Assembly: GCA_049366815.1 (NCBI GenBank)
Contig: JBMNCO010000132.1
Span: 8,891-72,890 of the forward strand
Reading direction: 5' to 3'
Length of the DNA: 64,000 bases
Source of the DNA: Desulfatiglandales bacterium
GTDB lineage: Bacteria; Desulfobacterota; DSM-4660; Desulfatiglandales; HGW-15
Within the stretch, counting starts at the first letter, position 1. Every line of letters starts with the position of its first letter. Shown here one piece after another: positions 1,887 to 49,599 of the stretch. Position numbers and translations under genes: made by a program. The notes under the pieces were generated by a model. It saw nothing but the letters and a program-made list of their open reading frames with translations. It was not told where the DNA came from and did no database searches.

Positions 1887-3431
1887 CTACCTGTACTGCC
1901 GCGGATTAATCCCAAACTTTGTGACCTTGTAGCCGAAGATCCGTTCAGTGGTATCCAGGGCCAGCGCCGCCCTTCTCATATTCCCCCGGTGGCTTTTCAG
2001 GGCATCGATCAGCAGTTCCTTTTCAAACCTCTCAACGGCGTCCTTCAAGGACTGGGACTGATGGGTCCCCGTGTCCTCCGCCGTCTGCAGTGTGGGGGGA
2101 AGATGATAACTGTGAATCACCTGATCATCGCAGAGGAGAACCGCCCGCTCCATGCAGTTTTCCAACTCCCTGACGTTCCCAGGCCAGTGATACTGTACAA
2201 GGGCATCGATTGCAGGGGTGGAGATTCTCTTTATATCCTTTTGGTATTCCTTTGCGTATTTCTCCAAAAAATAATCTGAAAGAAGGAGAAGATCCGCTTC
2301 TCTTTCACGAAGTGGAGGCAGGTAAATGGGGTATACATTCAGCCGGTAAAACAGGTCCTCGCGGAACCCCCCCGTTTCCACCAAACCGGCCAGATCCTTA
2401 TTGGCCGCCGCGACGAGCCGCACATTGACTTTGGTGACTTTCGTTCCGCCAAGCCTTTCCAGTTCCCTCTCCTGCAGGACCCGCAGCAGTTTTCCCTGGC
2501 TTTCCAGGGCCAGGGAGCCGATTTCATCCAGGAAGATCGTCCCACCGTTGGCCCGCTCGAATTTCCCTTCTTTGGCACTGCTGGCTCCGGTGAAGGCACC
2601 CTTTTCATAGCCGAACAACTCGGCCTCCACCAGGTTTGCCGGAAGCGCTGCGCAATTGATCTTCACCAAGGGCATCTTCGCCCGCAGGCTGTTGTAATGG
2701 ATGGCATTGGCCACCAGTTCTTTACCCGTCCCGCTCTCTCCAAGGAGAAGAACGCTGGCATTGCTTTTAGCAACCTGTGTGATCAGGTGAAAGACCTCTT
2801 GCATCTTATGGCTGTTTCCGATGATATTGCTGAAGCTGTATTTTTGACCGAGTTCCTTCTTGAGCCGAAGATTTTCCTGATTGAGCAGTTCTTTCTCTCT
2901 CTTGATTTTCTCAAGCATACCCACCTTCTGGGCGATCAGGCTGCTTATGATCGTGAGGAACCTGACGTCTTCCTCCAGGCTGGATTCCCCCTCGAACAGA
3001 TGGTCCGCACTGAGGGCGCCGATCACCCTTCGACCATCTTTTATGGGTACGCAGATAAAGGACATCTTCGACTTTTTCAGTTTGCCCCTACTCCCGGTCC
3101 TGTCCAAGAATAGAGGCTCCGCATCGATATCCGGTACGGCCATGGGCCGTCCGGATTCAATGACCCTGCCCGTCACCCCCTCTCCGAGCTTGTAGCGGCC
3201 CTTTGTCCTTGCCGATGACGAAATGCCGTGAGCCAGCTCGATGTGAATTTCTGCAGTATTGGGGTCAAGAAGGGTTATGGAGCCGCGGTTCATTCCAATC
3301 TGCTGTGACAGCAGATCCAAGACCCCATAGAGGGCCTTTCTCAGGTCAAAGGTCCCATGAAGGGCCTTCGTGATTTCATAGAGACAAGTCATCTCATCCC
3401 GTTGGGATGTCGACCTGATTGAATCCGTCAT
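1887..3431 (-). CDS. sigma-54-dependent transcriptional activator with N-terminal GAF domain (NifA-like architecture)
   Basis: AAA+ core with Walker A GESGTGKE and the sigma-54 contact motif GAFTGA (EKGAFTGA). C-terminal Fis-type HTH and N-terminal GAF-like region. The preferred start is ATG 3431 (MTDSIRS), preceded by AAGGAGAG; the track start at 3614 has no RBS. Confidence 0.9.
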   Translation of the reverse strand: MTDSIRSTSQRDEMTCLYEITKALHGTFDLRKALYGVLDLLSQQIGMNRGSITLLDPNTAEIHIELAHGISSSARTKGRYKLGEGVTGRVIESGRPMAVPDIDAEPLFLDRTGSRGKLKKSKMSFICVPIKDGRRVIGALSADHLFEGESSLEEDVRFLTIISSLIAQKVGMLEKIKREKELLNQENLRLKKELGQKYSFSNIIGNSHKMQEVFHLITQVAKSNASVLLLGESGTGKELVANAIHYNSLRAKMPLVKINCAALPANLVEAELFGYEKGAFTGASSAKEGKFERANGGTIFLDEIGSLALESQGKLLRVLQERELERLGGTKVTKVNVRLVAAANKDLAGLVETGGFREDLFYRLNVYPIYLPPLREREADLLLLSDYFLEKYAKEYQKDIKRISTPAIDALVQYHWPGNVRELENCMERAVLLCDDQVIHSYHLPPTLQTAEDTGTHQSQSLKDAVERFEKELLIDALKSHRGNMRRAALALDTTERIFGYKVTKFGINPRQYR

Positions 3432-3785
3432 CTGTCTGTTCTCTCCTTTTGTTTCTCGCAATATTACAAAATTGTAGAACAACAGGCAAGATTTTTCAGG
3501 TGTGGACGGAAACATGAGGCGGGTTATGCAAGGCGCTGAGGAACCCCGGACCATGCCCGGAACGCGAATTTGTATGCGTTTGGCCGTTGGAAATAGCCCG
3601 GCAATTTGGGCCATGGGAGTCTCTTTTTAAAAACAGAGGCCCATAGTGACGGAAAATGGGAAGTTCGTTGAGATCTCTTTCTCTTGACAATCCGTCTCAT
3701 TTTCTTTAATGGTTCTCTTTCAAAAAAGATAGATCAAACATCCGCCCCAGAGTTCTTCTATAAGACCCCTTTTTTTATTCAAGAA

Positions 3786-10823: not shown

Positions 10824-11187
10824 GTCCGTCCCTGGACCGAATCCCACCCTTAGACCTGCGCCGGCACAGCCCGGCCATCGGCCCCGACTTCCGCACTTTC
10901 CATTGATTCAGCCGACAGAACAGGCTGTTTGTCGGTGATGATGCAGCCTTACTTTATTTCGTTTTTCCGGAAGGGCTGGACCACAACATGAGGCATGATA
11001 TTTTGTCTTGACACACCATACCAATATTGCTAGAGCTTGTCTTGCATTGAAAATGCAGGTTTTATCACAGGCCAAGCGTACATCTTCTTGTATATCTGTT
11101 ATCCCTTGACGAGTTCAACAGGTTTTCAAAAATACGGTTCAAGCGTGCTAAAATTTCACCAAATTTCTCAAGTCTGAGAGAGGGAAA

Positions 11188-13557
11188 ATGAAACCTTTTA
11201 GTCATAAGAACGCCAAGACTGTCAAAGAAGCAGTCAAACTGCAGGGCAAAGGCAAGACCAAACTGATTGCCGGCGGGACCGACCTCCTCGGGATATTAAA
11301 GGATAAGATCCTCCCTGAGTATCCGGAGACCGTAATCAATATCAAGACCATCCCAAACCTGGACTACATCAAAGAGGATGCCAGAGGACTCAAGATCGGG
11401 GCCCTGACGAAGCTGGAGGATATCGCGGCCTCCCCCATAGTCAAGGATAAGTATAAGATACTCGCTGAGGCGGCTGATTCAGTAGCGACTCCCCACATCC
11501 GCACCATGGGCACTCTGGGCGGCAACCTTTGCCAGGATGTGCGTTGCTGGTACTACCGATACCCGGACCAGATAGGTGGACGCATCGACTGCTATCTGAA
11601 AGGTGGCAAGGAGTGTTATGCGCTGACCAGGGAGAACCAGTATCACTCGATATTCGGAGGGATGAGGTTTGTCGCTCCACCCTGCCGGTCAGCCTGCCCC
11701 AGTCATGTCAATATACCCGCCTACCTGAATGCCATAGGAGAGGATGACCTCCTTGAAGCAGCCAGGGAGCTACTGAACAACAACCCGCTCCCGGCCATAA
11801 CCGGCCGGGTATGCCCGCATTTTTGTGAACAGTCGTGCAACCGCGGTCATTTCGATGAGTCCCTGTCAATCAGGGATATCGAGCGATTCATCGGAGACTA
11901 TATCCTGGATAAGGGCGATGAAGTCATTGAAAAACCCAGGGAAAGCACGCGCAAGAAGGTGGCGATAATCGGCTCCGGCCCGGCGGGCCTTGCCGCAGCT
12001 TACTACCTCAGGTTATCGGGGCATCGCGTTACTGTCTTCGACCGGATGGAAGAGGCCGGAGGATTACTGAGATATGTCATTCCATCTTACAGGCTCCCGA
12101 AAGATATTGTGAGACGCACGATACAACTGCTCGAGAATATGGGGATTGAATTCAAACTCAAAGTGGATATCGGTCAGGATGTCACCGTCGATAATCTCAG
12201 GAAAGAGTATAACGCCGTCTTTATCGGCACCGGCGCCTGGAATCCCGTATCCATCGGTCTGGACGGCGAAGAAAAAACCGTATTCGGGCTGGATTTTCTG
12301 GCTGATATTCAAAAGGGGATCAAAAAGCCCCTCGGTAAGAAGGTCCTGGTCATTGGAGGAGGCAATGCAGCCATTGATGTAGCCGTCAGTTCGTTGCGCC
12401 TGGGCGCTCAAGAGGCCACGATGGCATGTCTGGAAAAGAAAGAAGAGATGCCGGCACTCCCATGGGAAATTGAGCAGGCCGAAGAAGAGAATATCAGGCT
12501 CATGCCATCCTGGGGCCCTCACAAGATACTCAAAACCAAGGGAAAAGTAGTCGGGATGGAACTCATCCGCTGCACCTCGGTCTATGACTCCCTGGGGCGC
12601 TTTGCCCCGACCTACGATGAGCGTGTCAAGACTACTGTTGAGGCGGACGCCATCCTTATGGCGGTCGGTTATGCGACAGACCTGAAATTTGCGGAAGGAA
12701 TCGTCAACATAAACCGCGGTCTGATCGTAGCTGACCACGAAACCCAGGCAACCAACTTGCGCGGCGTCTTTGCCGGTGGTGCGGTGGCACGCGGTCCTGC
12801 AACGGTCATAGAAGCAATCGCCGACGGGAAGAGGGCTGCATTCGCCATGGACGCATATCTGAAGAAGGTCGGAAGGGAAAAGGAGAATGCCGCCGCGACT
12901 CTATTGAAATTTAATTCCGAATATTACAAAAAATCAGATAAACTGAAGGCATCCAGAATCGCATTAAATAGACGCACAATAGACATTGAAGACACTCCCG
13001 GTTTTGGTCTGAACCAGATCGAGACCGAAGCAAACAGGTGTTTCAACTGTGGTTGCGTGTCCGTTAATGCTTCTGATACCGGGGTAGCCCTTGAGGCTCT
13101 CAATGCCAGGGTGAAGATTGTCGGCGCAAAGGGGACCAGGACTATACCCGTTACTGAATTCTTCGGCTCCTTACCCAATGTGCTCGAAGAAGGGGACATT
13201 GTTACAGAAATTCAGGTCCCTGCACCACGCGACGGGGCCAGGCAGACATTCCTCAAATTCCGTTTGCGTGATGCGATAGATTTTGCCCTGGTGAGTGTTG
13301 CATCTGTGGTTTCTCTGGACAATGGTATCTGTCAGGACGCACGTATCGTGTTGGGTGCAGTCGCCCCGCGTCCGTTAAGGGCCTTTGCAGCGGAAAAAGC
13401 GTTAGTCGGGCAGGCACTCGATGATAAACAGGCCGCTGCTGCGGCGGAGGCTGCTCTTGAGGACGCGCTGCCGCTGGAGAAGAACAGCTATAAGATTCCC
13501 ATTGCCAGGGAAATGGTCCAGCGTGCTGTTGCAAATCTTGAAAATTCCGGGAAATGA
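11188..13557 (+). CDS. Molybdenum-hydroxylase FAD-binding subunit (CoxM/XdhB/HcrB type) with inserted GltD-like FeS/FAD/NAD(P)H oxidoreductase module
   Basis: The N-terminus (KLIAGGTDLLGILKD, GTLGGNLCQ) and residues from about 620 to the end (VALEALNARVKIVG.. plus a CO-DH flavoprotein C-terminal-like domain) form a split FAD subunit. Between them lie Cys clusters (C115,C120,C135,C143; C166,C170; C209,C213,C217) and two dinucleotide folds (VAIIGSGPAGLAAAYYL; VLVIGGGNAAIDVA), as in the glutamate synthase small subunit. Confidence 0.85.
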   Translation: MKPFSHKNAKTVKEAVKLQGKGKTKLIAGGTDLLGILKDKILPEYPETVINIKTIPNLDYIKEDARGLKIGALTKLEDIAASPIVKDKYKILAEAADSVATPHIRTMGTLGGNLCQDVRCWYYRYPDQIGGRIDCYLKGGKECYALTRENQYHSIFGGMRFVAPPCRSACPSHVNIPAYLNAIGEDDLLEAARELLNNNPLPAITGRVCPHFCEQSCNRGHFDESLSIRDIERFIGDYILDKGDEVIEKPRESTRKKVAIIGSGPAGLAAAYYLRLSGHRVTVFDRMEEAGGLLRYVIPSYRLPKDIVRRTIQLLENMGIEFKLKVDIGQDVTVDNLRKEYNAVFIGTGAWNPVSIGLDGEEKTVFGLDFLADIQKGIKKPLGKKVLVIGGGNAAIDVAVSSLRLGAQEATMACLEKKEEMPALPWEIEQAEEENIRLMPSWGPHKILKTKGKVVGMELIRCTSVYDSLGRFAPTYDERVKTTVEADAILMAVGYATDLKFAEGIVNINRGLIVADHETQATNLRGVFAGGAVARGPATVIEAIADGKRAAFAMDAYLKKVGREKENAAATLLKFNSEYYKKSDKLKASRIALNRRTIDIEDTPGFGLNQIETEANRCFNCGCVSVNASDTGVALEALNARVKIVGAKGTRTIPVTEFFGSLPNVLEEGDIVTEIQVPAPRDGARQTFLKFRLRDAIDFALVSVASVVSLDNGICQDARIVLGAVAPRPLRAFAAEKALVGQALDDKQAAAAAEAALEDALPLEKNSYKIPIAREMVQRAVANLENSGK

Positions 13558-13564
13558 GGTCATT

Positions 13565-14065
13565 ATGACTGACAAGAAAACAATAAATCTGGTAGTCAAC
13601 GGTAAGCCCTATGAACTGATGATCGGAAAAGACATCATCCCATCGGACACGTTGGCAGAGACACTGCGAAATCATCTGGGTCTGCTCGGTACAAAGATTT
13701 CTTGCGACCGGGGAGCCTGCGGCTCCTGCACCGTAATCCTTGACGGCAAGGCCGTCCTGTCATGCACGACACTGACCGTGGAGTGCGACGGTGCGAGCGT
13801 GACGACCATCGAAGGTCTGGAAGACCCCAAAACAGGTCAGTTGGACCCGATTCAACAGGCCTTTATTGATCACACCGCCTTTCAGTGCGGTTTTTGCACC
13901 CCCGGCATCATCATGACAGTCAAAGACTTGTTAAACAAAAATCCCAAACCTACGGAGGGTGAAATCAAGAACGCCCTTTCCGGCAATTTCTGCCGCTGTA
14001 TTTCACATTATGAAGTCTTAGAAACCGTCACTGCTGTAATCGAAGGTGGGAAGCATGGCAAATAA
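13565..14065 (+). CDS. Molybdenum-hydroxylase small subunit, 2x[2Fe-2S]
   Basis: Plant-type motif CDRGACGSCTV plus the second cluster motif CGFCTPG..CRC. ATG 13565 lies 8 nt after the upstream stop; the track start at 13421 overlaps the previous gene and is rejected. Confidence 0.9.
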   Translation: MTDKKTINLVVNGKPYELMIGKDIIPSDTLAETLRNHLGLLGTKISCDRGACGSCTVILDGKAVLSCTTLTVECDGASVTTIEGLEDPKTGQLDPIQQAFIDHTAFQCGFCTPGIIMTVKDLLNKNPKPTEGEIKNALSGNFCRCISHYEVLETVTAVIEGGKHGK

Positions 14066-16304
14066 TTACCGTTACATTGGAAAAGATACACCACGTAAAG
14101 ACGCGAGAGATATCGTCACGGGAAAAGCGCAATACCTGGATGACGTACGCCTGCCGAATATGCTGATCGGTAGAGTGTGCAGGAGCCCCATCCCCCATGC
14201 CAACATTATAAGTATAGATGTCGACCGGGCTGCAGCCCTACCCGGTGTCCACGCGGTGCTGACACATAAAGATGTAACAGATGCTATCTGGGGCATCCCC
14301 AATCACATGAAGCTCCTGGACAAAAAGGTCCGTTTTGTCGGTGATGCCGTTGCGCTGGTGGCCGCGGACACCGCCGAGATAGCTGATAAAGCAATTGAAC
14401 TCATCCAGGTGGAATACGAGCCGCTGGCAGCCTGCTACGACGTCGAAGATGCCATCAACCCGAGCCAGCCGCCGCTCTATGACCAGTACCCGAATAACAC
14501 GATTCCCCAGATTTCCAAGCTGTTGCAAAATGTGATCAAGGGAGATGTGGATAAAGGCTTTGCGGAGGCTGATGAAGTCATCGAGGGCACGGGATTCTAT
14601 GAGTGTTTTCCCAATCCACTGCCCCCGGAACCGCCCGGCGTCGTTGCATACTGGGAAAATCCGGATAAACTGGTAGCCTACGTGGCGACTCAATCACTCG
14701 GTCTGAACAAATACCTGGCGCAACCTTTCTTTGGTATGGCGGAAACGCAATTTATCGCCACACAGTGCGGAGGAAGCTATGGGACGAAAAATGCCAACCT
14801 GACACCAATCGGTTATGCAGCCGAACTATCGAAGGCAACCAGACGACCGGTCAAGATCTATTACACAAAAGAGGAGCACCTGGCCGCCTACTCATTGCGC
14901 ATTTCATGCCGCATTAATGCCCGTGTCGGTATCAAAAAGGACGGTACGGTCACGGCCGTAACCGGAGACTGGGTGGTCAACACCGGCGCGGGTTCGGAGG
15001 CGGGACCACATGAGATTGCCGTGGGCTGCGGTGAGCTTCAACTGGTCCTGCGTTGTCCGAACTGGGACCTTCGCTCAAGGCTGGTCCTCACCAACCGGGC
15101 GCCCACGGGCATTGTCCGGGGTTACGGCGGACAGGAACTGGAAAGCTCCATTCTGCCCATCCTGGGCATGGCCATGGAAAAGGTCGGCGTTAACCCGGTG
15201 GACTTCTTCAAAAAGAACTTTGTCAGGGCAGGCGATCAATACTTCTGGCGCAACGGTAAGAAGTACGTCTACCGAGGTGTGGACTTTTCTCCAGCCATTG
15301 ATAACGGCGCAGCAAAATTTGGTTGGAAAGAAAAATGGAAGGGATGGGGGAAACCCACCTCCGTCGATGGGAACAAACGACGGGGTGTGGGGCTGGGCAT
15401 CCACTGTAATGCGGATGTCGGTGAAGACGATTCGGAGGCATGGGTAAAACTGACCCCGGACGGCCGCGCTCTTGTTTTGGCCGCGGTTTCAGAGGCCGGG
15501 CAAGGTCAGCGCAGCAGCTTGGTAAAGATGGCTGCTGAGGTGCTTCAGCTCCCCTTGGACCGTGTCACCATGAGTTTTCCGGATACAGACGGGAATCCGT
15601 TCGATTTCGCCCTGGTAGGTTCACGGGGGACCTTTACCACAGGTTCCGCTGTGATACAGGCCGCCGAGGATGCCCGGCGTCAGCTCCTGGAAATGGCGGC
15701 ATCGGTGATGAACCTCAAACCTGAAGAACTCGATACGGAAGACGGGTACGTATTCGAGATCAAAAATCCCAAGAACAGGTTGCTCTGGCGTAAAGCAACC
15801 GGCCTGACGAGCACTATCCTGGGCAAGGGGAGGTTCGAGGAGGATTTCACGTTAAGTAATTTTCTTATGACATTCGTTGAGGTCGAAGTCGATACGGTCA
15901 CAGGGAAAATTACACTCGTGAAGGTCCTCAACAGCGCTGGATGCGGTCAGGTCATCTCTCCCGCCGTCCTGCAAGGTCAGTTGCACGGCGCCCTGGGGTC
16001 TGCGGGTCTGGACACAGCCATATTCGAAGGCGGTGTGCTGGACCCCAGCATCGGACGCATGGTCAATTCCAACATGATTGACTATAAATGGCGGACTTTC
16101 AATGACCTGCCTCTTTTTGACAACATGACCATGGATACACCTATGCCCACCCACCGTTTCCATGCGGTCGGTGTCGGCGAGATATCCACATCGCCCGGCC
16201 CCAGCGCCGTACTTATGGCTGTTTACAATGCCATCGGCACAAGGATCATGGACTATCCATTTACTCCGGATAAGGTGTTGAAAGCGCTGGGCAAGATTGA
16301 GTAG
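14055..16304 (+). CDS. Molybdenum-hydroxylase large subunit (xanthine dehydrogenase/aldehyde oxidase family, molybdopterin-binding)
   Basis: N-terminal IGKDTPRKDARDIVTGKAQYLDD (a/b-hammerhead) and full-length similarity to CoxL/XdhA/HcrA-type proteins. The start overlaps the small-subunit stop. The substrate cannot be assigned from sequence. Confidence 0.9.
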   Translation: MANNYRYIGKDTPRKDARDIVTGKAQYLDDVRLPNMLIGRVCRSPIPHANIISIDVDRAAALPGVHAVLTHKDVTDAIWGIPNHMKLLDKKVRFVGDAVALVAADTAEIADKAIELIQVEYEPLAACYDVEDAINPSQPPLYDQYPNNTIPQISKLLQNVIKGDVDKGFAEADEVIEGTGFYECFPNPLPPEPPGVVAYWENPDKLVAYVATQSLGLNKYLAQPFFGMAETQFIATQCGGSYGTKNANLTPIGYAAELSKATRRPVKIYYTKEEHLAAYSLRISCRINARVGIKKDGTVTAVTGDWVVNTGAGSEAGPHEIAVGCGELQLVLRCPNWDLRSRLVLTNRAPTGIVRGYGGQELESSILPILGMAMEKVGVNPVDFFKKNFVRAGDQYFWRNGKKYVYRGVDFSPAIDNGAAKFGWKEKWKGWGKPTSVDGNKRRGVGLGIHCNADVGEDDSEAWVKLTPDGRALVLAAVSEAGQGQRSSLVKMAAEVLQLPLDRVTMSFPDTDGNPFDFALVGSRGTFTTGSAVIQAAEDARRQLLEMAASVMNLKPEELDTEDGYVFEIKNPKNRLLWRKATGLTSTILGKGRFEEDFTLSNFLMTFVEVEVDTVTGKITLVKVLNSAGCGQVISPAVLQGQLHGALGSAGLDTAIFEGGVLDPSIGRMVNSNMIDYKWRTFNDLPLFDNMTMDTPMPTHRFHAVGVGEISTSPGPSAVLMAVYNAIGTRIMDYPFTPDKVLKALGKIE

Positions 16305-19237: not shown

Positions 19238-22200
19238 TTGAAACACAAAAATATATCCCACCCATTCGTTATCCGTGTCATCGGCGCCCGACAGAACAAC
19301 CTCAAGAACCTGAATATCGATATCCCTTTGAACCGATTCACGGTCATCACAGGGGTGAGCGGTTCCGGCAAGTCCTCCCTGGCCTTTGATACCCTCTATG
19401 CCGAGGGGCAGCGCCGCTATGTTGAAACCTTCTCGCCCTATGCCCGACAGTTCATGGAACGCATGGACCGGCCCCAGGTCGACCGGATCGAAAACATCCC
19501 ACCGGCCATTGCCATCGACCGAAAGGATCCCGTCCGGACCTCCCGCTCCACGGTCGGCACCATGACCGAACTCACGGATTATGTGAAACTCCTCTATGCC
19601 CGTCTCGGACAGCTCCACTGCCGCACATGCGGCAGGCCCGTGCATCCGGAAACCCCTGAACAGGTCTGGCAGGCCATCAAAGAGATCCCGGAAAAATCCG
19701 AGATGATCATCACCTTCCCCGCCCCTCAAAACGGCGCGACACCTCAGGAACTGAAGCGGGATCTCCTGCGCATGGGATTTACCCGGCTCCTTGAGGAGGC
19801 AGAGGTGATTCCCCTTGAGGAGTGGCATCCTGAAGGGGTGGAGAAGCGGGCACCCCAGGTCATCGTGGATCGTCTCGTCTTTGCGGCCTCTGAGAAGAAG
19901 AGGGTCATGGACTCCCTGGAACAGGCCTTTCGCTTCGGCGAGGGGCGGCTGGATGCCTGGATCAAACCCGACCGTCACCTCGCATTCAGCAACCGGCTGG
20001 AATGCCCAAGGTGTCATCTCGCATACCGCCCTCCCATCCCCAACCTCTTTTCCTTTAACAGCCCTGCCGGGGCCTGCGAAACCTGCCGGGGATTCGGCCG
20101 GATCATTGACATCGATATAGACCTGATCATCCCGAACCCGCAGCTCTCCCTTGCACAGGGGGCCGTCAAGCCCTGGGGCGGCCGTGAAGAGGGACGCATG
20201 GAATATGAGGAATTGGCGGCCTTCTGTCAACAGAGCAAGATCCCCCTGGACAAGCCCTTTTCCCGGCTGACACAGGCCCAGCAGACACAGATCATCGGGG
20301 GGACGGATCGTTATTACGGCATACGGGGCTTTTTCAATTGGCTCGAGACCAAGACCTACAAAATGCACGTCCGCGTGTATCTGTCCCGTTACCGCACCTA
20401 CAGAGTCTGTCCGGATTGCGAGGGCACCCGATTCAACAAAGAGGCCCTGCTCTACCGGCTGGAGGGACGCCATATCGGTCAGATCTATGCCCTGAGCGTG
20501 GACAGTGCTCACCAATTCTTTCATGACCTCTCTGTTTCCCATGAAGACAAGGCCGGCCGGCTCATCCTTGACGAGATTCAAAGCCGGCTGACCTACCTGC
20601 GGGAGGTGGGTCTCGGATATCTGAGCCTGGACCGGCAGTCCCGGACCTTATCAGGAGGCGAGGTCCAGCGGGTGGCCCTGACCTCGGCACTGGGTTCTTC
20701 ACTGGTCAACACGCTTTATGTCCTGGACGAACCCAGTATCGGGCTCCATCCCCGGGACAATCACCGCCTGATCCGCATATTGAAGGGTCTGAGGGACCTG
20801 AGAAACACCGTCGTGGTGGTCGAGCATGACCCCGGTATCATCAGCCGGAGCGACTATATGCTGGACCTGGGACCCGGTGCCGGAGAACAAGGCGGGAGGG
20901 TCATGTACTTCGGTCCCACGGCCAAGGTCGGCCGATCTCTGACCGGGCAATATCTCAAGGGAGAAAAGGTCATTCCTTTTCCCAGGATTCGTCGGACACC
21001 GAAGAAAAATCAATGGCTGGTCGTGGAGGGGGCCGCGGAAAACAACCTGAAGGACATCAGAGTCGACATTCCTCTGGGTCTCTTCGTCTGCCTGACCGGC
21101 GTGTCCGGTTCCGGCAAATCCACGCTCGCCGAGGATATCCTCTACAAGGGCATCAAACGGGCGCGGGGCGAGGCCGAGGGTCGGCCGGGAAGCCATAAGG
21201 CCATCAAGGGCTTGAGCGCCATCGACGATGTCATCCTCGTGGATCAACGACCCATCGGGAGAACTCCACGGGCCAATCCCCTGACCTATACAAAGGCCAT
21301 GGACCCCATCCGAAGACTCCTGACCGATACGGACGAGGCCCGGTCCAGAGGCATGGGCCCGGGCCACTTCTCCTTCAATGTCCCCGGGGGGAGATGTGAG
21401 ACCTGCAAGGGGGCGGGTTTTGAAAAGGTGGAGATGCAGTTCCTCTCCGACGTCTACATCACCTGTCCGGATTGCGAGGGAAGGCGCTATCGGCCGGAGG
21501 TCCTGGAGGTCACCTACAGGGACAAAAACATCCACGATATCCTCACCATGACCGTGGATCAGGCCCTCCGTTTCTTCACGGAACAGGCCGGAATCAGGGA
21601 GACCCTGGAACCCCTCAGTGAGGTGGGCATGGGATATATACGTCTTGGGCAACCGCTCCACACCCTTTCGGGGGGTGAGGCACAGCGTCTCAAGCTCTCC
21701 CAGTTTATCAGAAGGAGAAGAGGCCGGCCTCAGCTCTTCATCTTTGACGAACCCACGACGGGACTTCACTTCGAGGATATCCAGAAACTGCTCACCGCTC
21801 TCCGAAAGCTGGTTGCTGAAGGTCACACCGTCTTGGTGATCGAACACAACATGGATGTCGTCAAATGCGCGGACTGGGTCATCGACCTCGGTCCTGAAGG
21901 TGGTGACGCGGGTGGTCGGGTCGTGGCGGCCGGTCCCCCTGAAGCGATCACCGGGCACCCTGCTTCCCACACCGGGATTTTCCTCGCGCCCTATCTCGCC
22001 GGAGAAAGCCCGTTTGAGGAGGCCGTGAGGGCCCCGGCCCTCCCCGCAAGCGATCTTCGCGGAAAGGTGGATGAGATCATCGTTTCCGGGGCAAAGGAGC
22101 ACAACCTCAAGGACCTCAGCCTTTCGATCCCCAGGGAACAGTTCGTGGTCGTCACGGGGGTCTCAGGATCGGGGAAATCGACACTGATTTTCGATATCCT

Positions 22201-24538
22201 CTTTGCCGAGGGGCAACGACGCTACCTGGAAAGCCTGGCCCCCTACGTGCGTCAATACATGCGAATCCTGGAACGCCCGGAGGTTGACGCGATCTCGGGG
22301 CTTCCGCCCACCGTGGCCATCGAACAACGCGTCAGCCATGCGAGCCCACGTTCGACTGTCGCGACCCTGACCGAGATATACCATTTCCTGCGGCTCCTCT
22401 ACAGCAAGCTCGGGACACAGCACTGCCCCCGGTGCGACCGGCCGCTTGCCGCCTTGACGGAGGACGCCATTTTGGAGCATATCGGAAATCGTTATGGGCG
22501 TAGGCGCGCCGTCGTCATGGCCCCAAAGATCATGGCCCGAAAGGGCTTCCACCGGGCCCTTTTGACGGAGGCCTACCTCAAGGGTTTTCGTGAGGCCCGG
22601 ATTGACGGGACCGTTGTCCCCCTGAGGGGGGACCTGGCACTGGACCGGCATCGGGAGCACACCATTGAACTGGTCATGGGAAGACTCCCGGGCAAAGATC
22701 CGGGCGGGCTCGTCTCCCGAGCCCTTGAGGAGGGGAATGGGAGCCTGATCATCCTGGACAACAAGGAGAGAGAAGAGACATTCAGTACCAGGGGCATCTG
22801 CCCTGTGTGCGGCATCGGTCTGCAGGCCCTGGATCCGAGGCTCTTTTCCTTCAACAGCAGGGAGGGCGCCTGCCCCCGGTGCAGGGGGCTGGGGGCCCTG
22901 GGCGACCCCGGGGAAGGCCGGGCCGTCACGTGTCCGCAATGCGGGGGCAGCCGTCTTAAACCCGAGGCCCTGGCGGTCAAGATCAACGGCCGGTCGCTAT
23001 GGGATCTGGTCCGGCAATCCGCCCCTTCACTGATCAATTTCATCGAGAAACTTTCTTTCCCAAGACATGAAGCGCCTATAGCACAGCCCATTCTGGAGGA
23101 GATCAACACACGGCTCTCCTTTTTGAGCCGCCTCGGCCTTTCCTATCTGGCCCTGAGCCGCAGCGGAGACACCCTTTCAGGCGGCGAGGCCCAACGTATC
23201 CGGCTGGCGGCCCAACTCGGCTCCAACCTCACCGGCGTGTGTTACATCCTGGATGAACCCACGATCGGTCTTCACGCCCGTGACAACGCCATGCTCCTGG
23301 ACGCCCTGGGCGAACTCAAAAAACGCGGAAATTCCATCCTTGTCGTCGAACACGATGAAGAAACCGTGGGACGTGCGGACCACATTATTGATCTTGGGCC
23401 CGGGGCCGGACGCCAGGGGGGACTGGTGGTGGCATCCGGGAAACTGGCCGATCTGAAAAAGGTGCCCGAGTCCGTGACGGGGTCCGCTTTAAACAGCAAC
23501 ACCCACGAACTGACATCCCGCCTTCGTATCTACAAAAGGCGGCCCCGCCTCAGGGTCCTGGGAGCGGCTGAACACAATCTGAAAAAGATCGAGGCCGATT
23601 TTCCCCTGGGAACCTTGATTTGTGTGACGGGTGTATCCGGTTCCGGGAAATCCACGCTTCTGAAGGAGACCCTTTATAAGGGGATCCGCAACCGTCTTTA
23701 CAAGACAAGGGACGGGGCGGGACTTTGCACAGACATCAAGGGCTGGGAGGCACTGGAGCGCATACTCGAGGTGGATCACAGCGCCATCGGCCGCACACCG
23801 CGATCCGTCCCCGCTTCCTACATCGGTTTCCTCGGCGAGATCAGAAAACTCCTGGCCATGACCCCCAGGGCCAGGGCCAGGGGGTTCAAACCCGGTCGCT
23901 TTTCCTTTAATGTCAAAGGCGGTCGCTGCGAGCCCTGCAAGGGCCACGGTTCCGTGAAGGTGGAAATGAGCTTTCTCCCGGACGTCTATGTGCCCTGTGA
24001 GGTCTGCGAAGGCCGCCGCTTTAATCAGGAGACCCTGGAGGTGAAGTACAAGGGAAAGGACATCTCGGAGATCCTCGACCTCACCTTCGAGGAGGCCTCG
24101 GATTTCTTTTCGGCTGTGCCGTCTATTCGACATGCAACAGGGCTGGTTTGTGACATCGGCCTGGGATACCTCACCCTCGGGCAATCCAGCCCCACCCTTT
24201 CCGGCGGTGAGGCCCAGCGCATCAAGCTGGCTGAGGAACTGTCCAAACCCACACGGGGCAAGACCCTCTACATCCTGGACGAGCCCACCACGGGGCTGCA
24301 CATCTCGGACGTCGGAAAACTCCTCAAGGTTCTTCAGGCCCTTGTAGACCAGGGAAACACCGTGGCCGTCATCGAACACAACATGGAGGTCATCAAGGAG
24401 GCGGATTATATCATTGACCTGGGTCCGGAAGGTGGGGATCAGGGCGGGTATGTGGCGGTCACCGGCTCGCCCCTGGAGATCATGGACAACCCCGACGGGT
24501 CTCATACAGCGAGGTATCTCAGAAAATATCTCCGGTAG
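19238..24538 (+). CDS. Tandem-duplicated UvrA-like ABC ATPase (two UvrA units in one 1766-aa polypeptide)
   Basis: Four Walker A motifs GVSGSGKS and four ABC signatures LSGGE(V/A)QR. The zinc modules are retained (CPRCH..CETC; CPDCEG; CPVCG..CPRC; CEVCEG). The second unit starts near nt 22065 ([15 protein letters not shown]..). TTG start preceded by GAAGGA. Confidence 0.85.
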
Positions 24539-37108: not shown

Positions 37109-37741
37109 ATCGGCCTGATGTCCTTTGACCGACACTCCGGCGGAACCCACGGCAGAAGGATACAATACACCGGGCTGTCGGCCCTGCCCATTGCAGGGGC
37201 ATTTTTCGATGATCACCCCCATATCGTCATCCAGTCCGCCCACAAAAAACAATTTGACATATTTTTGCGCTTCCCTTACCATCCCCCTGACCAAAATATA
37301 AAAGAATTCCTACCTAAACTGAGATGTATGCCGCCTCGTTCAGCCGGGGCCGATTCCGTAAACAATATGCTGTAGGGGACCAGGGTATTATTCCAAGACC
37401 CCTTCAAAGATGTTGAACCTTTTAAACGAGGCTTGACCTTTGAGTATTCGGCAGATTTATCCCATATTTCACGTAACCATTTTTCACTTATTTTTATTTG
37501 TCGTTTGTCGCCGCCTTTGACACAGGTTCTTTGGCATGCCAATTTCGGGCTAGTCCACCGGAACGATTGGAGCTGGGAGATGCGTTCAGATGCAGTCCTC
37601 CAACGGGAACCTTTACAGGGAAAACAACACAAAGTCTGATGGGGCTGAAAGGAGGTGATAAGGGCTCAATACAGGAAGTGGATACCTCACGGCTAGAAAC
37701 CCGAAGCAATGCAAATCAAAAAAAAGAAAGGGCTACTTAAT

Positions 37742-39598
37742 ATGGCAGATAAAAAGCGATTTCCCTATCCAGATGAAGTTGTCCTGCCACCCGAACTGGA
37801 GGGATGGGAGGAGATGTATCCGCCTCAAAGGCTTTTCAGTGATGACCGGGCCGACTGGGAAAAAAGGCATTTCTGGTATCAGGACAAGATCCACGCATCC
37901 GAGCCCATGTATCCACTGGACGACATTTTCCAGGAGGCCTGGCAAATCGCGCTCTCCCAGTTTACCACAAGGGTATTCTGCATCCCTCCCGCCCAGGGCG
38001 TGGCACACAGGATGCTGGGTTGCTACATGTACATCGCCGCGGTCGAACCACCCCCTCCCGAGGTGATTCAAAAGAAGGCTGAGTTGTTCGGCAAAAGGGT
38101 CCCCTACACCTTTGAGAATTATCTGAAGCAGTTTGAGGTATGGCTTGAAAGATTTCAAAAACTGGGTAGAGAAATGGAACAGCTCTCCATACCGGAAAAA
38201 TTGCCCCAGTTTGTGCCTGACGAAGAGGTTATCCCCATGCCCAAGGGGGTCACGGACGGCCATCAGGTGATGGAAAACTTCAATACCATCATCAGCCAGA
38301 TCTTCAAGGCCTGGCAATACCATTTCCAGTACCTGAACCTCGCCTATCTGGCCTATCTCATGTTCGTGGATACAGCAAGAAAACTCTTCCCGGGGATCAA
38401 AGAGTCCACCATCGGCAAGATGGTTGCAGGCGCCGAGGTCTCCATGTTCCGCCCCGAGGAGGAACTGTGCCGGCTGAGCAAGCTGGCGGCCGCCAAAGAC
38501 AATGTCAAAGACATCCTCAAGGGAGCCGGCCCCGCTGCGGACAAGATCAAGGCCCTGAGTGGGACCGATGAAGGCAAGGCGTGGCTCGATGAGATCGAGA
38601 AGATCAAGGACCCCTGGTTCTTTGTATCCTGCGGCAGTGGGTGGTACCACCAGGAGGGAAGCTGGATCACCAAGATGGATGTCCCCTTCAGTTATATGCA
38701 GAGTTATATTGAAAGACTCGAGCAGGGACATGAGATTGAACGTAATCTAAACGAGATCTCTGAAGAGCGGGATAGGATCGTCGGGGAGTACAGGGCCCTG
38801 ATCAAATCGGAAGACGATCTGAAATCCTTCGATGATGCCTATCATGTGGTCCGATCCATTTACAGGTATGCGGAGGACCACCTGTTCTGGGTGGAACATT
38901 GGCTGCACACCATCTGGTTTGCCAAGATCCGGAATTTCGGTGATCTTCTGGTGAATCAGAACGTATTGAAGGAGACGGATGACATCTTTCTCTTCAACCG
39001 TTTTGAGATCCCCATGATGCTGGAGGATATGGTCACGGCCTGGGCCCTGGGAGAGGGTGTCCCAACCAGAAAAATGTGGATGGAAAAGGCCGAGAAGCGA
39101 GCCAAGATCCTCCAGGCGGCCAATAAATGGAATGCAACCCCAGCCCTCGGAGTGCCCCCTGAAGAGATCGCGGAGCCCTTTACCCTGATGTTGTGGGGAG
39201 TGACGACCGACAAAGTCGATGAATGGCTCAAGGGAACGGCAACGGGAACGGGGGAAGTGAGCGAAGATATAACCGAACTCAGGGGATTCGCCTCGTCGGC
39301 CGGTATTGCGGAAGGCCCGGCCAGGGTGCTCAAGCTCCTCCGGGACGTGGTGGATCTCCAGCCCGGCGAGATCATGGTCGCCCCGACGACCAACCCGTCA
39401 TGGGCGCCCGTGTTTACCAAGCTGAAGGGGGCGGTTACGGATATCGGTGGCCTCACCTCCCATGCGGCCATTGTCTCCCGGGAATACGGTCTGCCTTCCG
39501 TAACCGGGACAGGGGTCGCAACCACCGTGATCAAGACCGGAGATATCATCCGGATTGACGGCAGCACCGGAGTCGTTACGATTGTAAAGAGGGCATAG
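37742..39598 (+). CDS. Phenylphosphate-synthase alpha-like subunit (PEP-utilizing enzyme, mobile phosphohistidine domain), paralog 1
   Basis: 618 aa, matching the ~70 kDa size of the Thauera-type protein 1. The C-terminal swivel domain is SWAPVFTKLKGAVTDIGGLTSHAAIVSREYGLP..TGDIIRIDGSTG. There is no ATP-grasp domain, which is supplied by the next gene. Confidence 0.8.
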   Translation: MADKKRFPYPDEVVLPPELEGWEEMYPPQRLFSDDRADWEKRHFWYQDKIHASEPMYPLDDIFQEAWQIALSQFTTRVFCIPPAQGVAHRMLGCYMYIAAVEPPPPEVIQKKAELFGKRVPYTFENYLKQFEVWLERFQKLGREMEQLSIPEKLPQFVPDEEVIPMPKGVTDGHQVMENFNTIISQIFKAWQYHFQYLNLAYLAYLMFVDTARKLFPGIKESTIGKMVAGAEVSMFRPEEELCRLSKLAAAKDNVKDILKGAGPAADKIKALSGTDEGKAWLDEIEKIKDPWFFVSCGSGWYHQEGSWITKMDVPFSYMQSYIERLEQGHEIERNLNEISEERDRIVGEYRALIKSEDDLKSFDDAYHVVRSIYRYAEDHLFWVEHWLHTIWFAKIRNFGDLLVNQNVLKETDDIFLFNRFEIPMMLEDMVTAWALGEGVPTRKMWMEKAEKRAKILQAANKWNATPALGVPPEEIAEPFTLMLWGVTTDKVDEWLKGTATGTGEVSEDITELRGFASSAGIAEGPARVLKLLRDVVDLQPGEIMVAPTTNPSWAPVFTKLKGAVTDIGGLTSHAAIVSREYGLPSVTGTGVATTVIKTGDIIRIDGSTGVVTIVKRA

Positions 39599-39683
39599 GC
39601 TGACATCGTAGTATGCCGGGGGTACACCTTCAAGGACCCCCGGCCCGTGTCAGTGATACGGCATGAACAGATAGGAGGGCAAA

Positions 39684-40760
39684 ATGCCAGAGCAATGGAT
39701 ATTCGGATTTGGGGAACTCGGTAAAGACCATAATAACATCGTGGGCAAAAAGTGCGCGAACCTCGGAGAAATGACCAAAGCCGGCTTTCACGTGCCGCCC
39801 GGCTTTGCCTTGAGTATCCTCGCATACGAACGGTTTATGAGAGAGACGGAAGCTGAAAAAAGCGTGCTGAAATACCTGGAAAATTTCCATGCGGACCCCG
39901 AGTCCGTGGAGGAAACGCCGAAATTTGACGCCGCCTCCAAGGAGATAAGAGGCATTGTCGAATCCATCAGGATGCCGGCCGATATGGAAGAAACCATTAA
40001 GGATTACTACGCTCAATTGTGCAAAGAAACAGGTATCGAAAACACATTCGTAGCCACTAGGTCGGCAGGGGCCTCGAGCCATCCCGGTCAATATGAGACC
40101 TATCTCAATGTGAGCGGGCCTGACGAAGTGGTCAGGAATGTGATACGTGTGTGGTCAAGCACATTCAATACCCGTTCGATGATTTCGAGGGCAAGGCTTG
40201 GGCTGCCGCTTCATTTTGATCCCATCGGGGTGGCCGTTCTCACCATGGTGGACGCAAAGGCCGCCGGCGTGATGCTCACCGTCAACCCGGTGAACGGTGA
40301 CGAATCGAAAGTCGCCCTTGAGGCCGGTTTCGGTGTCGGTGAAGCGGTCGTCTCGGGGAACGTGACCCCTGATCGGTATCTGGTCGACAAGATCACGTTG
40401 GAAATAGACGAAAAGTTCATCTCTGAGAAGGGCGCAGAGTACGCCTACAACCCTGAAACCAGGAAAATGGAATGGAAAGAACTCCCGCCCGAAAAAAGAA
40501 AGCTGCCTTCTCTTGACGACATAGAGATCATCGAGCTGACAAAGATCGCCAAGAAGGTGGAGGCCCATTTCGGCTGCCTGCAGGACATCGAGTTCTCCGT
40601 CTCGAGGACCTTGCCCTTTCCAGAAAACATCTTTCTCGTACAGGCCCGCCCCGAGAGCGTCTGGGCAAAGAAAGAAAAAAAATCGGTTTTGGGCAAAAAG
40701 AGTGGTTTTGAATTATTATTCGAAAAGGCGACAACGCCTATCAAGCTGAAGACAGATTAA
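39684..40760 (+). CDS. Phenylphosphate-synthase beta-like subunit (PPDK/PEP-synthase N-terminal ATP-grasp domain), paralog 1
   Basis: 358 aa (~40 kDa). VGKKCANLGEMTKAGFHVPPGFAL, TRSAGASSHPGQYETYLNV and LQDIEFSV are typical of the nucleotide-binding domain of PEP synthase-like enzymes. Confidence 0.8.
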   Translation: MPEQWIFGFGELGKDHNNIVGKKCANLGEMTKAGFHVPPGFALSILAYERFMRETEAEKSVLKYLENFHADPESVEETPKFDAASKEIRGIVESIRMPADMEETIKDYYAQLCKETGIENTFVATRSAGASSHPGQYETYLNVSGPDEVVRNVIRVWSSTFNTRSMISRARLGLPLHFDPIGVAVLTMVDAKAAGVMLTVNPVNGDESKVALEAGFGVGEAVVSGNVTPDRYLVDKITLEIDEKFISEKGAEYAYNPETRKMEWKELPPEKRKLPSLDDIEIIELTKIAKKVEAHFGCLQDIEFSVSRTLPFPENIFLVQARPESVWAKKEKKSVLGKKSGFELLFEKATTPIKLKTD

Positions 40761-40772
40761 GGAGGCTGGACA

Positions 40773-41285
40773 ATGGAGGAACGCAGTTTACTGAATGGCA
40801 AAAAGATCCTAGCTGTGGACGATGAGCCGGATATTCTTGAATTCCTTGAAGAACACTTGAACATGTGTCAGATCGTGAAGGCTGCCAGCTTCACGGATGC
40901 AAAGAATTTACTGGAATCTCAGGATTTCGATGCGGCCATTCTGGATATCATGGGCGTTAACGGCTACGAACTTCTCGAAATTGCGAACAGGAGGAAGATT
41001 CCCTGCCTCATGTTGACGGCCCATGCCTTCAGTCCGGACAACATCGTGCGATCCATCAAGGAGGGCGCAGCGTCTTACGTGCCCAAGGAGGAGATAGCGA
41101 AGGTCGAAGCTTTTCTGAATGACATATTTCTCGCACAGGAAAAGGGCGAAAATCCCTGGGTGTCATGGCAGGAACGACTCCCCGGTTCTTATTTCAGAAT
41201 GAGGTTTGGTGCGGCCTGGGATGCAGCGGACGATCAATTCCGGAATGCCCTTAAGGATGTCCTTCGATCCAGATCGAAGACCTAG
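40773..41285 (+). CDS. Stand-alone response-regulator receiver domain protein with ~50-aa C-terminal extension
   Basis: All receiver catalytic positions are present: acidic pair VDDEPD, phospho-acceptor AAILDIMG, LMLTAH (Thr) and SYVPKE (Lys). There is no output domain. RBS AAGGAGG. Starts 12 nt after the beta-like gene stop. Confidence 0.85.
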   Translation: MEERSLLNGKKILAVDDEPDILEFLEEHLNMCQIVKAASFTDAKNLLESQDFDAAILDIMGVNGYELLEIANRRKIPCLMLTAHAFSPDNIVRSIKEGAASYVPKEEIAKVEAFLNDIFLAQEKGENPWVSWQERLPGSYFRMRFGAAWDAADDQFRNALKDVLRSRSKT

Positions 41286-41996
41286 ATGAAACTGGGGGGA
41301 GTGACCGTTGACCGGCCGCCCCCTCCCCTTTCAATTCTATGAGACCATCCCGGTGCCCTCACGTTGCAGGCCCTTGCTTTCCTTTTACAACGCACTGCCC
41401 GATTAGATCCAAGAAGACAGAATAACTCCCCCGGAATCATTGCTGATCTCGGGAACTGAATCGTGCCAATCCTTAGCGCTGGCTGCCTTCAAGGCGCAGG
41501 TCCATCGCGCCATAATTACATAAATTAATTTTATGTATTTCATATATTTAATTTATTTGACTCGGATAAGTTAAAGTTTTATTAGGACCCAAAACACAGG
41601 ATCAATTTTCCTGACTATTTCGTGGACCATTAATAGAGAATCATTGTGCAACGATCCAAAGCAATAACTGAGGGAATGACCTTTTCTCCCGACACAGCGG
41701 TCTGCACTTTGAGAAAGCCTTAAACCTGTCAAACCCAGAGCTTGTTGAGGATAACATCACTGAGCGATATGCGGCGTACTGAGCACTAAAGATTCAATCA
41801 GCAGTGAAATATGACCCGATAGTCCTACATCTCAAAAATCACAGAGGAAGGGGCTGTAGCGCACCCCGATAAACGTGCTTTGATTCAAAAAGATAGGTCT
41901 TTTTGTGTGATCCGGATAATGGTTAAAGGTTAAGCCCCAGGCGCTGGGCCCGGGAAACAGACCAATTTATTAATCCATGAAATAGGAGGAACCATT

Positions 41997-43097: not shown

Positions 43098-43241
43098 CGG
43101 CCTGTGGTGGTCCCATGCGCTTCATAAAACGAGAGGCACTGGAATATTTAATCAACACGAGTGTTACAAAGGCGTCACACGGCAGTCTTTTCAGTCTCAC
43201 GGTCATTACTAACCCAACACCTTAGAGGAGGAAGAAAAGAA

Positions 43242-45092: not shown

Positions 45093-45293
45093 ACGCATAG
45101 GCACGATAGACTTAGGGTAAATCGTGTGGTTCCAGCCGGAAATGGACCCGGCATCCGCCTCAAACTTGGCAACTCGCGGCGGGAGGGTCCATCTCCGGCA
45201 TATTACATAACAGGGCTGGATCAAAAAAAGACAGTCCGCTTCAACGTGTGCACACTGTGTGCACCGTATATTTTGTTCTATTTGGGGGTAGAC

Positions 45294-46364: not shown

Positions 46365-46451
46365 TGTCTCGTATCAAACCAAGGTGAAAAATAACCCGTC
46401 CAAGAAGACTTCAGGACGGCACACATTCTGTCCTCATCTGAAGGAGGAGGC

Positions 46452-47663: not shown

Positions 47664-47698
47664 AGACACAACCGTCCGGGACCCCAATTCGTCAAAAA

Positions 47699-48631: not shown

Positions 48632-48910
48632 CGCGTCTCACCCTCCCGCATGCAAAGCGTTTCCTTTCTAAAAAAGCCCACTTGTCACTATCTGTTGTTA
48701 TAGCTCGGCCATATTTTACGGTCCCATGAGCGGTTTCGGCCGCTGTATCCACTGTCCTTTTGACCCCCGCACCATAAAAGCGAGACTGCGGGTCTGTCTC
48801 CACAACGTATCCCGTCCTGGAAGGATTTTTATGTATACCCCATTTTATCGGCAATAAAAAATATTTTTTATAGCTCTCTTGATTATTAAGATATTATTAT
48901 AATTTGTGCT

Positions 48911-49571: not shown

Positions 49572-49599
49572 TTGACAACACAATAAAACGCTTTATACT
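49572..49599 (+). promoter_or_regulatory. Candidate sigma-70 promoter for the UbiD/HAD carboxylase operon
   Basis: TTGACA (49572-77), a 16-nt spacer, then TATACT (49594-99), about 175 nt upstream of ATG 49773. Motif match only. Confidence 0.4.

Follow-up and report, generated by a model that had tools for sequence, protein, structure and literature searches.

The locus described here raises the question of how a molybdenum (Mo) enzyme is supplied with electrons when its flavin subunit is far longer than those of its solved relatives. In a 64,000-nucleotide stretch of Desulfatiglandales bacterium contig JBMNCO010000132.1 (the whole stretch analysed, hereafter the window), a tightly packed, co-directional operon at 11188-16304 encodes a xanthine-dehydrogenase-family Mo enzyme, and its flavin adenine dinucleotide (FAD) subunit, beta, carries a complete NAD(P)H-oxidising iron-sulfur flavoprotein module as an insertion. 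All three subunit types of the xanthine oxidase/Mo-hydroxylase family (alpha-beta-gamma) were recognised by Pfam. In alpha, PF01315, PF02738 and PF20256 matched at E values from 1.8e-30 to 1e-49 (an a/b-hammerhead and two Mo-cofactor-binding domains), and its cofactor is probably molybdopterin in the molybdopterin cytosine dinucleotide (MCD) form. The best explanation of the operon, which we hold with moderate confidence, is a self-contained linear wire, that is, an NADH-driven reductase or dehydroxylase with an FAD subunit of HcrB-type ancestry.

A preliminary description of the locus had noted that beta, at 789 amino acids (aa), is oversized and that the two halves of its FAD-binding fold lie about 500 aa apart, and both observations were confirmed: FAD subunits among solved structures measure 278-330 aa, and the nested order was recovered by parsing the protein with hidden Markov models (HMMs). 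Pfam placed FAD_binding_5 in two stretches (best 8-116, E 2.8e-37), Fer4_20 at 163-242 (E 2.9e-22), Pyr_redox_2 at 256-547 (E 1.6e-30) and CO_deh_flav_C at 694-782 (E 2e-17). Among the NCBIfam models, that for HcrB covered residues 3-158, the GltD-like model PRK12771 matched 163-623, and the XdhB model picked up at residue 623, corresponding to its own position 116; since the HcrB model stops at 158 and the XdhB model resumes at 623, the FAD fold is interrupted by ~500 aa. The cysteines listed earlier (115, 120, 135, 143, 166, 170, 209, 213 and 217), both Rossmann motifs and the GltD/NfnB-like unit were all found in place. An AlphaFold2 model built from a 31-sequence alignment formed a single confident body (pLDDT 88.8, pTM 0.82). 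In Foldseek comparisons its insert overlaid Pyrococcus furiosus NfnI-L at 2.0-2.3 Å (5jca_L: root-mean-square deviation (rmsd) 2.3 Å, TMt 0.79) and GltD at 2.7-2.9 Å, and every solved chain left roughly half of the model or more uncovered (TMq <= 0.56). Both flavin sites appear intact, namely the AGGTD and TxGGN motifs of the FAD subunit and the GSGPAG of the inserted module; G29, T31, D32, T109, G112 and N113 are invariant or nearly so among 31 aligned family members (36-81% identity), a set that underlies all conservation counts given here. The segment that leads from the module back to the FAD fold (548-613) also occurs in Bfu-type NfnA and StnC.

A merger of two genes by sequencing or assembly error has no probability left, because the second half of one fold stands behind the insert, with the two halves flanking it on both sides in the same frame. 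Independent assemblies that share the ~790-aa architecture number in the hundreds and range from Desulfobacterota to gut Clostridia. More than 120 proteins with 65-99% identity have the length and domain list of beta, and an exhaustive profile-free search matched it full-length to ~30 clusters (at the 50% identity level), down to 38% identity. When one genome per species was scanned, 17 genomes carried a full-length fused beta; they include metagenome-assembled genomes (MAGs) of Desulfobacteraceae, Syntrophorhabdales, Desulfobacula, Myxococcota, Dehalococcoidaceae, Acidimicrobiia, Peptococcaceae, Bacteroidales, Lachnospiraceae and Christensenella as well as isolate genomes (Enterocloster, Sporobacter termitidis). 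A metagenome scan added more than 30 further loci. Some members depart from the usual form. In the Peptococcaceae MAG L020 (9956-12359), the fused beta is split into open reading frames (ORFs) of 224 and 555 aa and alpha lies in several pieces, representing either a pseudogene or assembly frameshifts. Larger fusions, in which a whole fused beta is joined to further sequence, were seen as a 1511-aa ORF in Myxococcota (L008, 2259-6794) and as the 1730-aa protein P0130, where the match to beta lies at residues 903-1470; a 1164-aa ORF at 8999-12493 of L106 likewise contains beta. These larger fusions probably include alpha-beta fusions.

The best solved relatives of the insert were Thermococcus NfnABC (9n5u_A, 343 bits), Caldicellulosiruptor NfnABC (9bov_A, 322 bits) and Sporomusa StnC (8oh5_C, 277 bits), followed by NfnB/NfnL (238-242 bits), GltD (203 bits) and DPD (161 bits). 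With the NfnL-like domain of the Bfu-type NfnA/StnC proteins (9BOV, 9N5U, 8OH5), the insert shares a shortened Fer4_20 that starts PPCxxxCP and a C-terminal EAxRCxxCGC. However, that domain is fused to an Fdh/NuoG-like domain in Bfu-type NfnABC/Stn and works with the BfuBC bifurcating core, unlike the window protein, and no genes resembling HydB/HydC (the BfuB/BfuC partner) were found in the window operon. The Bfu-type domain also differs in having a lysine at its proximal cluster (Lys170) where the window has E232, and an NADPH-specific YRR motif where the window has CLE. The large subunit of NfnSL, GltD and the N-terminal module of DPD have the same fold as the insert (rmsd 2.0-3.7 Å over ~425 columns), with FAD, two [4Fe-4S] clusters and a nucleotide site, and the NfnL-type proximal cluster of three Cys plus Glu is matched in beta, with the Glu in this position also in Thermotoga maritima NfnB; these modules are free-standing or N-terminal and work with NfnS, GltB or DPD partners, whereas no such partner is present in the window. 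Membership in GltD itself was rejected, as TIGR01317 scored 238.9 against a cutoff of 447.7 and TIGR01318 263.8 against 482.95, with no GltB-like gene nearby; the NfnB model also scored under its cutoff.

The point of insertion can be read from the iron-sulfur ligands. In the alignment to HcrB of 4-hydroxybenzoyl-CoA reductase (1RM6_B, Thauera aromatica), the beta segment GGNLCQDVRCWYY...C...C falls on HcrB GGNLCQDTRCTFY...C...C, with C120, C135 and C143 on HcrB C122, C138 and C146. C623, the last Cys in RCFNCGC, falls on HcrB C155 and on the equivalent Cys of the Methylobacillus aldehyde oxidase medium subunit (5y6q_B). The ligands of the HcrB cluster are reportedly C122, C138, C146 and C155 (Unciuleac et al. 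2004). The corresponding positions of beta are conserved in 31/31 (C120), 31/31 (C135), 30/31 (C143) and 31/31 (C623) members, and C115 in 27/31. Thus, of the four-Cys loop proposed in the preliminary description (C115, C120, C135 and C143), the HcrB-type loop at the insertion point stood, whereas C115 as a ligand did not, C623 aligning instead. The latter belongs to a motif behind the insert that had been overlooked, E614-A-N-R-C618-F-N-C621-G-C623, in which E614, R617, C618, C621 and C623 are invariant. Because C120, C135 and C143 precede the insert and C623 follows it, all matching HcrB, the NfnL/GltD-type module appears to interrupt an HcrB/PaoB-type [4Fe-4S] loop after its third ligand and before its fourth. 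Between this loop and the insert, H153 (nucleotides 11644-11646, motif YHSIFG) is present in 30/31 members and not at the equivalent position of HcrB.

Two further clusters are predicted within the module. The flavin-proximal cluster A7 of Csac NfnA is bound by Cys108, Cys147, Cys151 and Lys170 (PMC11829005), which map by alignment to C170, C209, C213 and E232 of beta; a Glu at the E232 position is found in T. maritima NfnB as well. These four residues would bind a proximal [4Fe-4S], and since the mapping takes them, C166, C217, C618 and C621 are the candidate ligands of a distal [4Fe-4S]. All seven cysteines of these two sets (C166, C170, C209, C213, C217, C618 and C621) are invariant, and E232 is conserved in at least 90% of the members. 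Three [4Fe-4S] clusters would in this way be accounted for by eleven Cys and Glu232, and the distal and loop clusters would have to be neighbours, because C618/C621 and C623 lie within six residues, with a spacing of two between C621 and C623.

With this ligand set, NADH would reduce the distal FAD of the inserted module, from which electrons would pass to the proximal [4Fe-4S], the distal [4Fe-4S] and the loop [4Fe-4S] (C120, C135, C143 and C623), onwards to the xanthine-dehydrogenase-type FAD, and finally through the two [2Fe-2S] clusters in gamma to the Mo cofactor in alpha. [quoted passage not shown] Beta would be derived from an HcrB/PaoB-type subunit with a surface [4Fe-4S] loop for an external ferredoxin, the module having been acquired inside that loop and now taking the place of the soluble ferredoxin as redox partner. 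The earlier suggestion of a direct connection between pyridine nucleotides and this Mo enzyme is thus supported, with the insert identified as an NfnL/GltD-type module of FAD plus two [4Fe-4S] clusters.

The nucleotide used by the module is indicated by the motif A413-C-L-E416 at the end of the beta2 strand of the second Rossmann fold, where 9n5u_A, 9bov_A, 8oh5_C and 4ylf_B have YRR. An acidic residue at this Rossmann position normally excludes the 2'-phosphate. Because CLE replaces the NADPH-marking YRR, the motif suggests that the window enzyme is of the NADH type. The family is split at this motif (20 CLE/TLE, 10 YRR and 1 LFDR among the 31 members), which predicts that it contains both NADPH-type and NADH-type enzymes.

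The subunit design is real and widespread, and it was already described for UxdC in 2025. Pidgeon et al. (2025, NPJ Biofilms Microbiomes, PMC12658268) reported uxdFOC of Enterocloster asparagiformis as a xanthine-dehydrogenase-family 10-hydroxy-urolithin dehydroxylase that, expressed in C. sporogenes, converted uroM7 to uroA; in their AlphaFold3 model of UxdC, two FADs lie at opposite ends, and a 4Fe-4S shuttle from the distal to the proximal FAD, as in 4-hydroxybenzoyl-CoA reductase, was proposed. The insertion point and the ligand set are not described in that paper. Matched by the published description, the window operon is like Uxd in its FAD subunit with added 4Fe-4S-binding and FAD/NAD(P)-binding domains and in its three-gene layout, whereas Uxd has the order gamma-alpha-beta, a gut Firmicute host and a known substrate, and the window operon has the order beta-gamma-alpha. 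The E. asparagiformis protein P0288 (788 aa, 45% identical to window beta, with all conserved ligands) was considered as the Uxd subunit and set aside as a paralogue, because its gamma-alpha-beta operon stands next to TetR and MFS genes without a ucd operon in the nearest 10 kb. Scanning metagenomes for gut-type fused subunits yielded 30+ fused loci, none of them beside a ucd-like operon with a small FAD subunit. In Ucd itself the FAD subunit is of the normal type and lacks the loop; urolithin C was dehydroxylated by purified Ucdh in an assay to which NADH was supplied. In JGI annotation, family members are labelled as fusions of GltD-like and CO/xanthine-dehydrogenase FAD subunits.

An unfused counterpart is found in Escherichia coli, where ygfK-ssnA-ygfM-xdhD, which is biochemically uncharacterised, places the same three functions side by side as separate proteins, whereas the window nests them. 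The GltD-like Fe-S flavoprotein YgfK matches the insert over its full length, EAxRC included, at 30% identity, and differs in keeping YRR and in having extra domains; YgfM is the FAD_binding_5 subunit, with the loop cluster region not aligned, and XdhD is the Mo/Fe-S subunit.

For the window enzyme we lean towards a reductive flow of electrons, with a plausibly phenolic or aromatic substrate, because of the HcrB-type ancestry of beta and because Uxd, which has been functionally tested and is matched by description, is a reductive phenol dehydroxylase. Several points weigh against a linear, NADH-driven reductase. The HcrB ligand set is a presumed one that the conservation pattern supports, and CxxCxC also occurs in Bfu-type relatives that have no HcrB loop; thus C623 could instead be a ligand of the distal cluster, and in most members C115 would then take its place in the loop. 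The preference for NADH is drawn from general Rossmann-fold rules, and the link to UxdC from a published description rather than from sequences. Sequence does not reveal the direction of flow; the family consists mostly of oxidative enzymes, one of which contains PaoB, a subunit that likewise carries the loop cluster. Lastly, what the sequences show is the architecture, the conservation of the ligand candidates and the homologies, and the cofactor occupancy of the fused-beta members is predicted from these.

The direction of flow is also what separates this reading from an oxidative Mo hydroxylase or dehydrogenase of the ordinary kind, with an aldehyde, an N-heterocycle or a similar compound as substrate, in which the module would be an outlet that reduces NAD(P)+ in place of ferredoxin, quinone or O2; we consider this unlikely, albeit a serious competitor. 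Oxidation is what most xanthine-oxidase-family enzymes catalyse, in principle the wire could run either way, and alpha has near its C-terminus a GVGE motif, whose Glu is presumably the catalytic Glu of the Mo-hydroxylase family. Moreover, PaoB and the Methylobacillus aldehyde oxidase medium subunit share the loop cluster and align through the loop, and E. coli pairs YgfK in trans with YgfM and XdhD in a purine-related cluster. However, the only functionally tested operon reported with this subunit design, Uxd (by description), is a reductive dehydroxylase, and the closest canonical relatives of the FAD fold are HcrB-type. Other fused subunits are paired with HcrA-like subunits in phenol clusters, and the members' hosts are strict anaerobes, a setting for which more and more reductive reactions of this family are being reported. 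In an active-site comparison of alpha, a search with a 300-aa segment did not retrieve HcrA; Asn directly follows the GGSYGTK motif, and xanthine-specific enzymes have Glu at this position.

A specific reductive assignment, namely that the operon is the organism's 4-hydroxybenzoyl-CoA reductase, completing a route from phenol through 4-hydroxybenzoate to benzoyl-CoA with NAD(P)H in place of ferredoxin, had been put forward as a plausible substrate class and is, in our assessment, improbable. The genomic context cited for it is present. A 2-oxoacid:ferredoxin oxidoreductase is represented at 435-1789 by its TPP and POR-gamma subunits, and phenylphosphate synthase-like, UbiD-like and UbiX genes lie at 37.7-56.3 kb, 21 kb from the operon. 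This phenol-type cluster (37709-56284) encodes two PpsA-like (629 and 643 aa) and two PpsB-like proteins (358 and 412 aa), three UbiD-like proteins, two small HAD-like proteins (185 and 179 aa) that may be PpcD-like, UbiX and, from the opposite strand, a LysR regulator; neither a CoA ligase nor a reductase was found in it. The window thus has pps-like, UbiD-like (putative ppc) and UbiX genes and no other xanthine-oxidase-family enzyme or canonical hcr genes, and the HcrB-type loop in beta also speaks for the assignment.

Alpha was placed by its HMM and PDB bit scores, used as a proxy for phylogeny. Among solved structures 1RM6_A came first (219.7 bits), narrowly ahead of Desulfovibrio aldehyde oxidoreductase (188.7 bits). 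The HcrA model TIGR03194, however, gave 347.6 bits against a cutoff of 994.55, under the 366.3 bits of the XdhA model, and all NCBIfam equivalog models scored far under cutoff for alpha; beta reached 162.1 bits against a TIGR03195 cutoff of 404.55, and gamma 153.4 bits against 257.8 for TIGR03193. By these scores, alpha is predicted to be neither an HcrA nor an XdhA equivalog. There is no adjacent CoA ligase, and the 21 kb before the phenol genes hold housekeeping genes (UvrA-like, SucCD, RNase J, FtsK and LolA). The close orthologues of alpha stand among unrelated neighbours in Chloroflexota and other MAGs, and D. anilini retains a canonical three-subunit reductase within its phenol cluster (PMC6114531). 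The window enzyme is probably not an orthologue of 4-hydroxybenzoyl-CoA reductase.

The same idea fits certain relatives far better. The alpha encoded with the fused beta in the Syntrophorhabdales MAG L006 scored 714 bits with the HcrA model and 529 bits on 1RM6_A (next structure 352), and behind its operon come PpsA-like genes and one for an MFS transporter; window alpha is 31% identical to it. Contig L087 has an HcrA-like alpha (712 bits) and a 793-aa fused beta among genes for a PaaK-like CoA ligase, PpsA/PpsB-like proteins and LysR, whereas on a Desulfobacteraceae contig a related HcrA-like alpha (751 bits) is paired with a canonical 335-aa HcrB-like beta. A fused-beta 4-hydroxybenzoyl-CoA reductase very probably exists in the organisms of L006 and L087, and not in the window operon. 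Directly 3' of the operon in L087 (15416-19569) are a DMSO-reductase-family oxidoreductase (884 aa), a 4Fe-4S ferredoxin-like protein and an NrfD-type membrane subunit, possibly a quinone-linked complex.

Least probable of the mechanisms weighed here, and very doubtful in our judgement, is flavin-based bifurcation or confurcation, also raised in the preliminary description, in which the NfnL-like flavin would couple the Mo-site substrate with NAD(P)H and ferredoxin. NfnL, in which the FAD is an established site of bifurcation, is a homologue of the insert with a nearly identical structure, the insert shares the Glu at the proximal cluster with T. maritima NfnB rather than the Lys of the Bfu type, and the enzyme has two flavins. 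Nevertheless, by the bit scores given above, its sequence is closer to the NfnABC/Stn domains than to NfnL, and in those enzymes the NfnL-like domain does no more than oxidise NADPH and pass electrons one at a time into the cluster chain, with bifurcation elsewhere, at B1-FMN-C1 (PMC11829005). GltD and DPD have the same fold without bifurcating either, and the NADPH-specific YRR of NfnL is lost in window beta. The operon encodes no NfnS-like partner and no third redox site, and no NfnS-like [2Fe-2S]/FAD partner or fourth gene is kept beside it across 20 loci. One linear chain uses up all the conserved Cys. Bifurcation is unlikely because a second exit for the flavin, which in NfnSL is the [2Fe-2S] of NfnS, is neither encoded nor provided by spare Cys. 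Two versions can be imagined, both hardly credible. A crossed-potential flavin would allow NADH (about -320 mV) to inject a ferredoxin-grade electron into the loop cluster, and thence into a Birch-type Mo reductase, with the high-potential electron going to a partner outside the operon; in reverse, an exergonic dehydroxylation would drive ferredoxin reduction. If true, this would be the first Mo enzyme with a built-in flavin-based bifurcation site.

A linear NADH input would be consistent with the way in which the fused beta is distributed among catalytic partners. Close alpha orthologues were found in five loci (77-91% identity in four and 59% in the fifth) from a Chloroflexota MAG, a deltaproteobacterial MAG and metagenome contigs, and in the four loci at 77-91%, alpha is more conserved than beta. 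Across the loci compared, identity to the window ranges from 25 to 91% for alpha and from 38 to 85% for beta. Because the fused beta pairs with widely different alphas, it looks like a general electron-input cassette. The conserved neighbours across the 20 loci, compared by all-against-all BLAST of their ORFs, are the three subunits only; the unit is therefore self-sufficient, and gene context gives no clue to the substrate. In two loci, two complete fused-type operons adjoin, divergently in L099 (1547-12376) and convergently in L114 (5000-17106); one operon of L114 is the orthologue of that in the window (alpha 91% identical), while the alpha of the other is 56% identical. These pairs suggest a paralogous expansion towards different substrates.

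To the published description of UxdC, the present analysis adds where the module is inserted, which ligands are assigned to each of three [4Fe-4S] clusters, the YRR/CLE split and the very different catalytic partners; literature searches found no paper on the insertion point, the ligand set, the YRR/CLE split, or a fused or bifurcating 4-hydroxybenzoyl-CoA reductase. Reductive chemistry by the xanthine oxidase family is a young topic, represented by 4-hydroxybenzoyl-CoA reductase and then by Ucd and Uxd in 2025, and the electron supply of these enzymes is poorly known. The locus belongs to a large, little-studied class, reaching across Desulfobacterota, Chloroflexota, Syntrophorhabdales and gut Clostridia, in which a ferredoxin-accepting loop of the HcrB type would have been turned into a hard-wired NAD(P)H input. 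In syntrophs, the HcrA-like fused enzymes offer a testable route to 4-hydroxybenzoyl-CoA reduction without the spending of reduced ferredoxin in energy-limited strict anaerobes.

The features of the operon are collected in Table 1. The boundaries of gamma and alpha follow the genes called on a 99%-identical contig (L001), and an exact-sequence lookup of beta gave no match. A Shine-Dalgarno-like run, GAGAGAGGGAAA, stands ahead of the ATG of beta, and the operon is flanked by genes for a HIT protein, a divergent thiolase and an ApbA-like reductase.

Table 1. Features of the Mo enzyme operon, in window coordinates; residue numbers refer to beta.
Feature	Coordinates	Strand	Evidence
Candidate promoters (two overlapping sigma-70-like matches)	11106..11154	+	Consensus scan, 9/12 each; AT-rich spacer 5' of the operon; weak evidence
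beta, FAD subunit with nested NfnL/GltD-type module, 789 aa	11188..13557	+	ORF, Pfam, NCBIfam, AlphaFold2
First half of FAD_binding_5 fold, residues 1-116	11188..11535	+	Pfam 8-116; FAD motifs AGGTDL (28-33) and TLGGN (109-113)
HcrB/PaoB-type [4Fe-4S] loop, residues 117-162	11536..11673	+	Ligand candidates C120, C135, C143; alignment to 1RM6_B
Fer4_20 domain, residues 163-242	11674..11913	+	Pfam
Two-Rossmann flavoprotein core, residues 256-547	11953..12828	+	Pfam Pyr_redox_2; FAD site GSGPAG (262-267), NAD(P)H site GGGN (390-393)
Helix and linker back to FAD fold, residues 548-613	12829..13026	+	AlphaFold2 pLDDT profile; 564-568 low-confidence
EANRCFNCGC, residues 614-623	13027..13056	+	Motif common to 9n5u_A, 9bov_A, 8oh5_C and E. 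coli YgfK
Second half of FAD_binding_5, CO_deh_flav_C and stop, residues 624-789	13057..13557	+	XdhB model; alignments to CutM, QorM, HcrB and others
gamma, two [2Fe-2S] domains, 166 aa	13565..14065	+	Pfam Fer2 (PF00111), Fer2_2 (PF01799); gene call in contig L001
alpha, Mo catalytic subunit, 749 aa	14055..16304	+	Pfam Ald_Xan_dh_C, MoCoBD_1, MoCoBD_2

Two further observations were made elsewhere in the window. On the plus strand, 19238-24538 holds a 1766-aa ORF with UvrA_inter, UvrA_DNA-bind and ABC_tran domains, approximately twice the normal length of UvrA; it lies in the highest-GC stretch of the window (0.59-0.61) and is a single gene in the 99%-identical contig L001 as well. On the minus strand, a GAF-domain sigma-54 enhancer-binding protein is encoded at 1887-3614, beside the 2-oxoacid:ferredoxin oxidoreductase subunits, with no link to the Mo operon seen.

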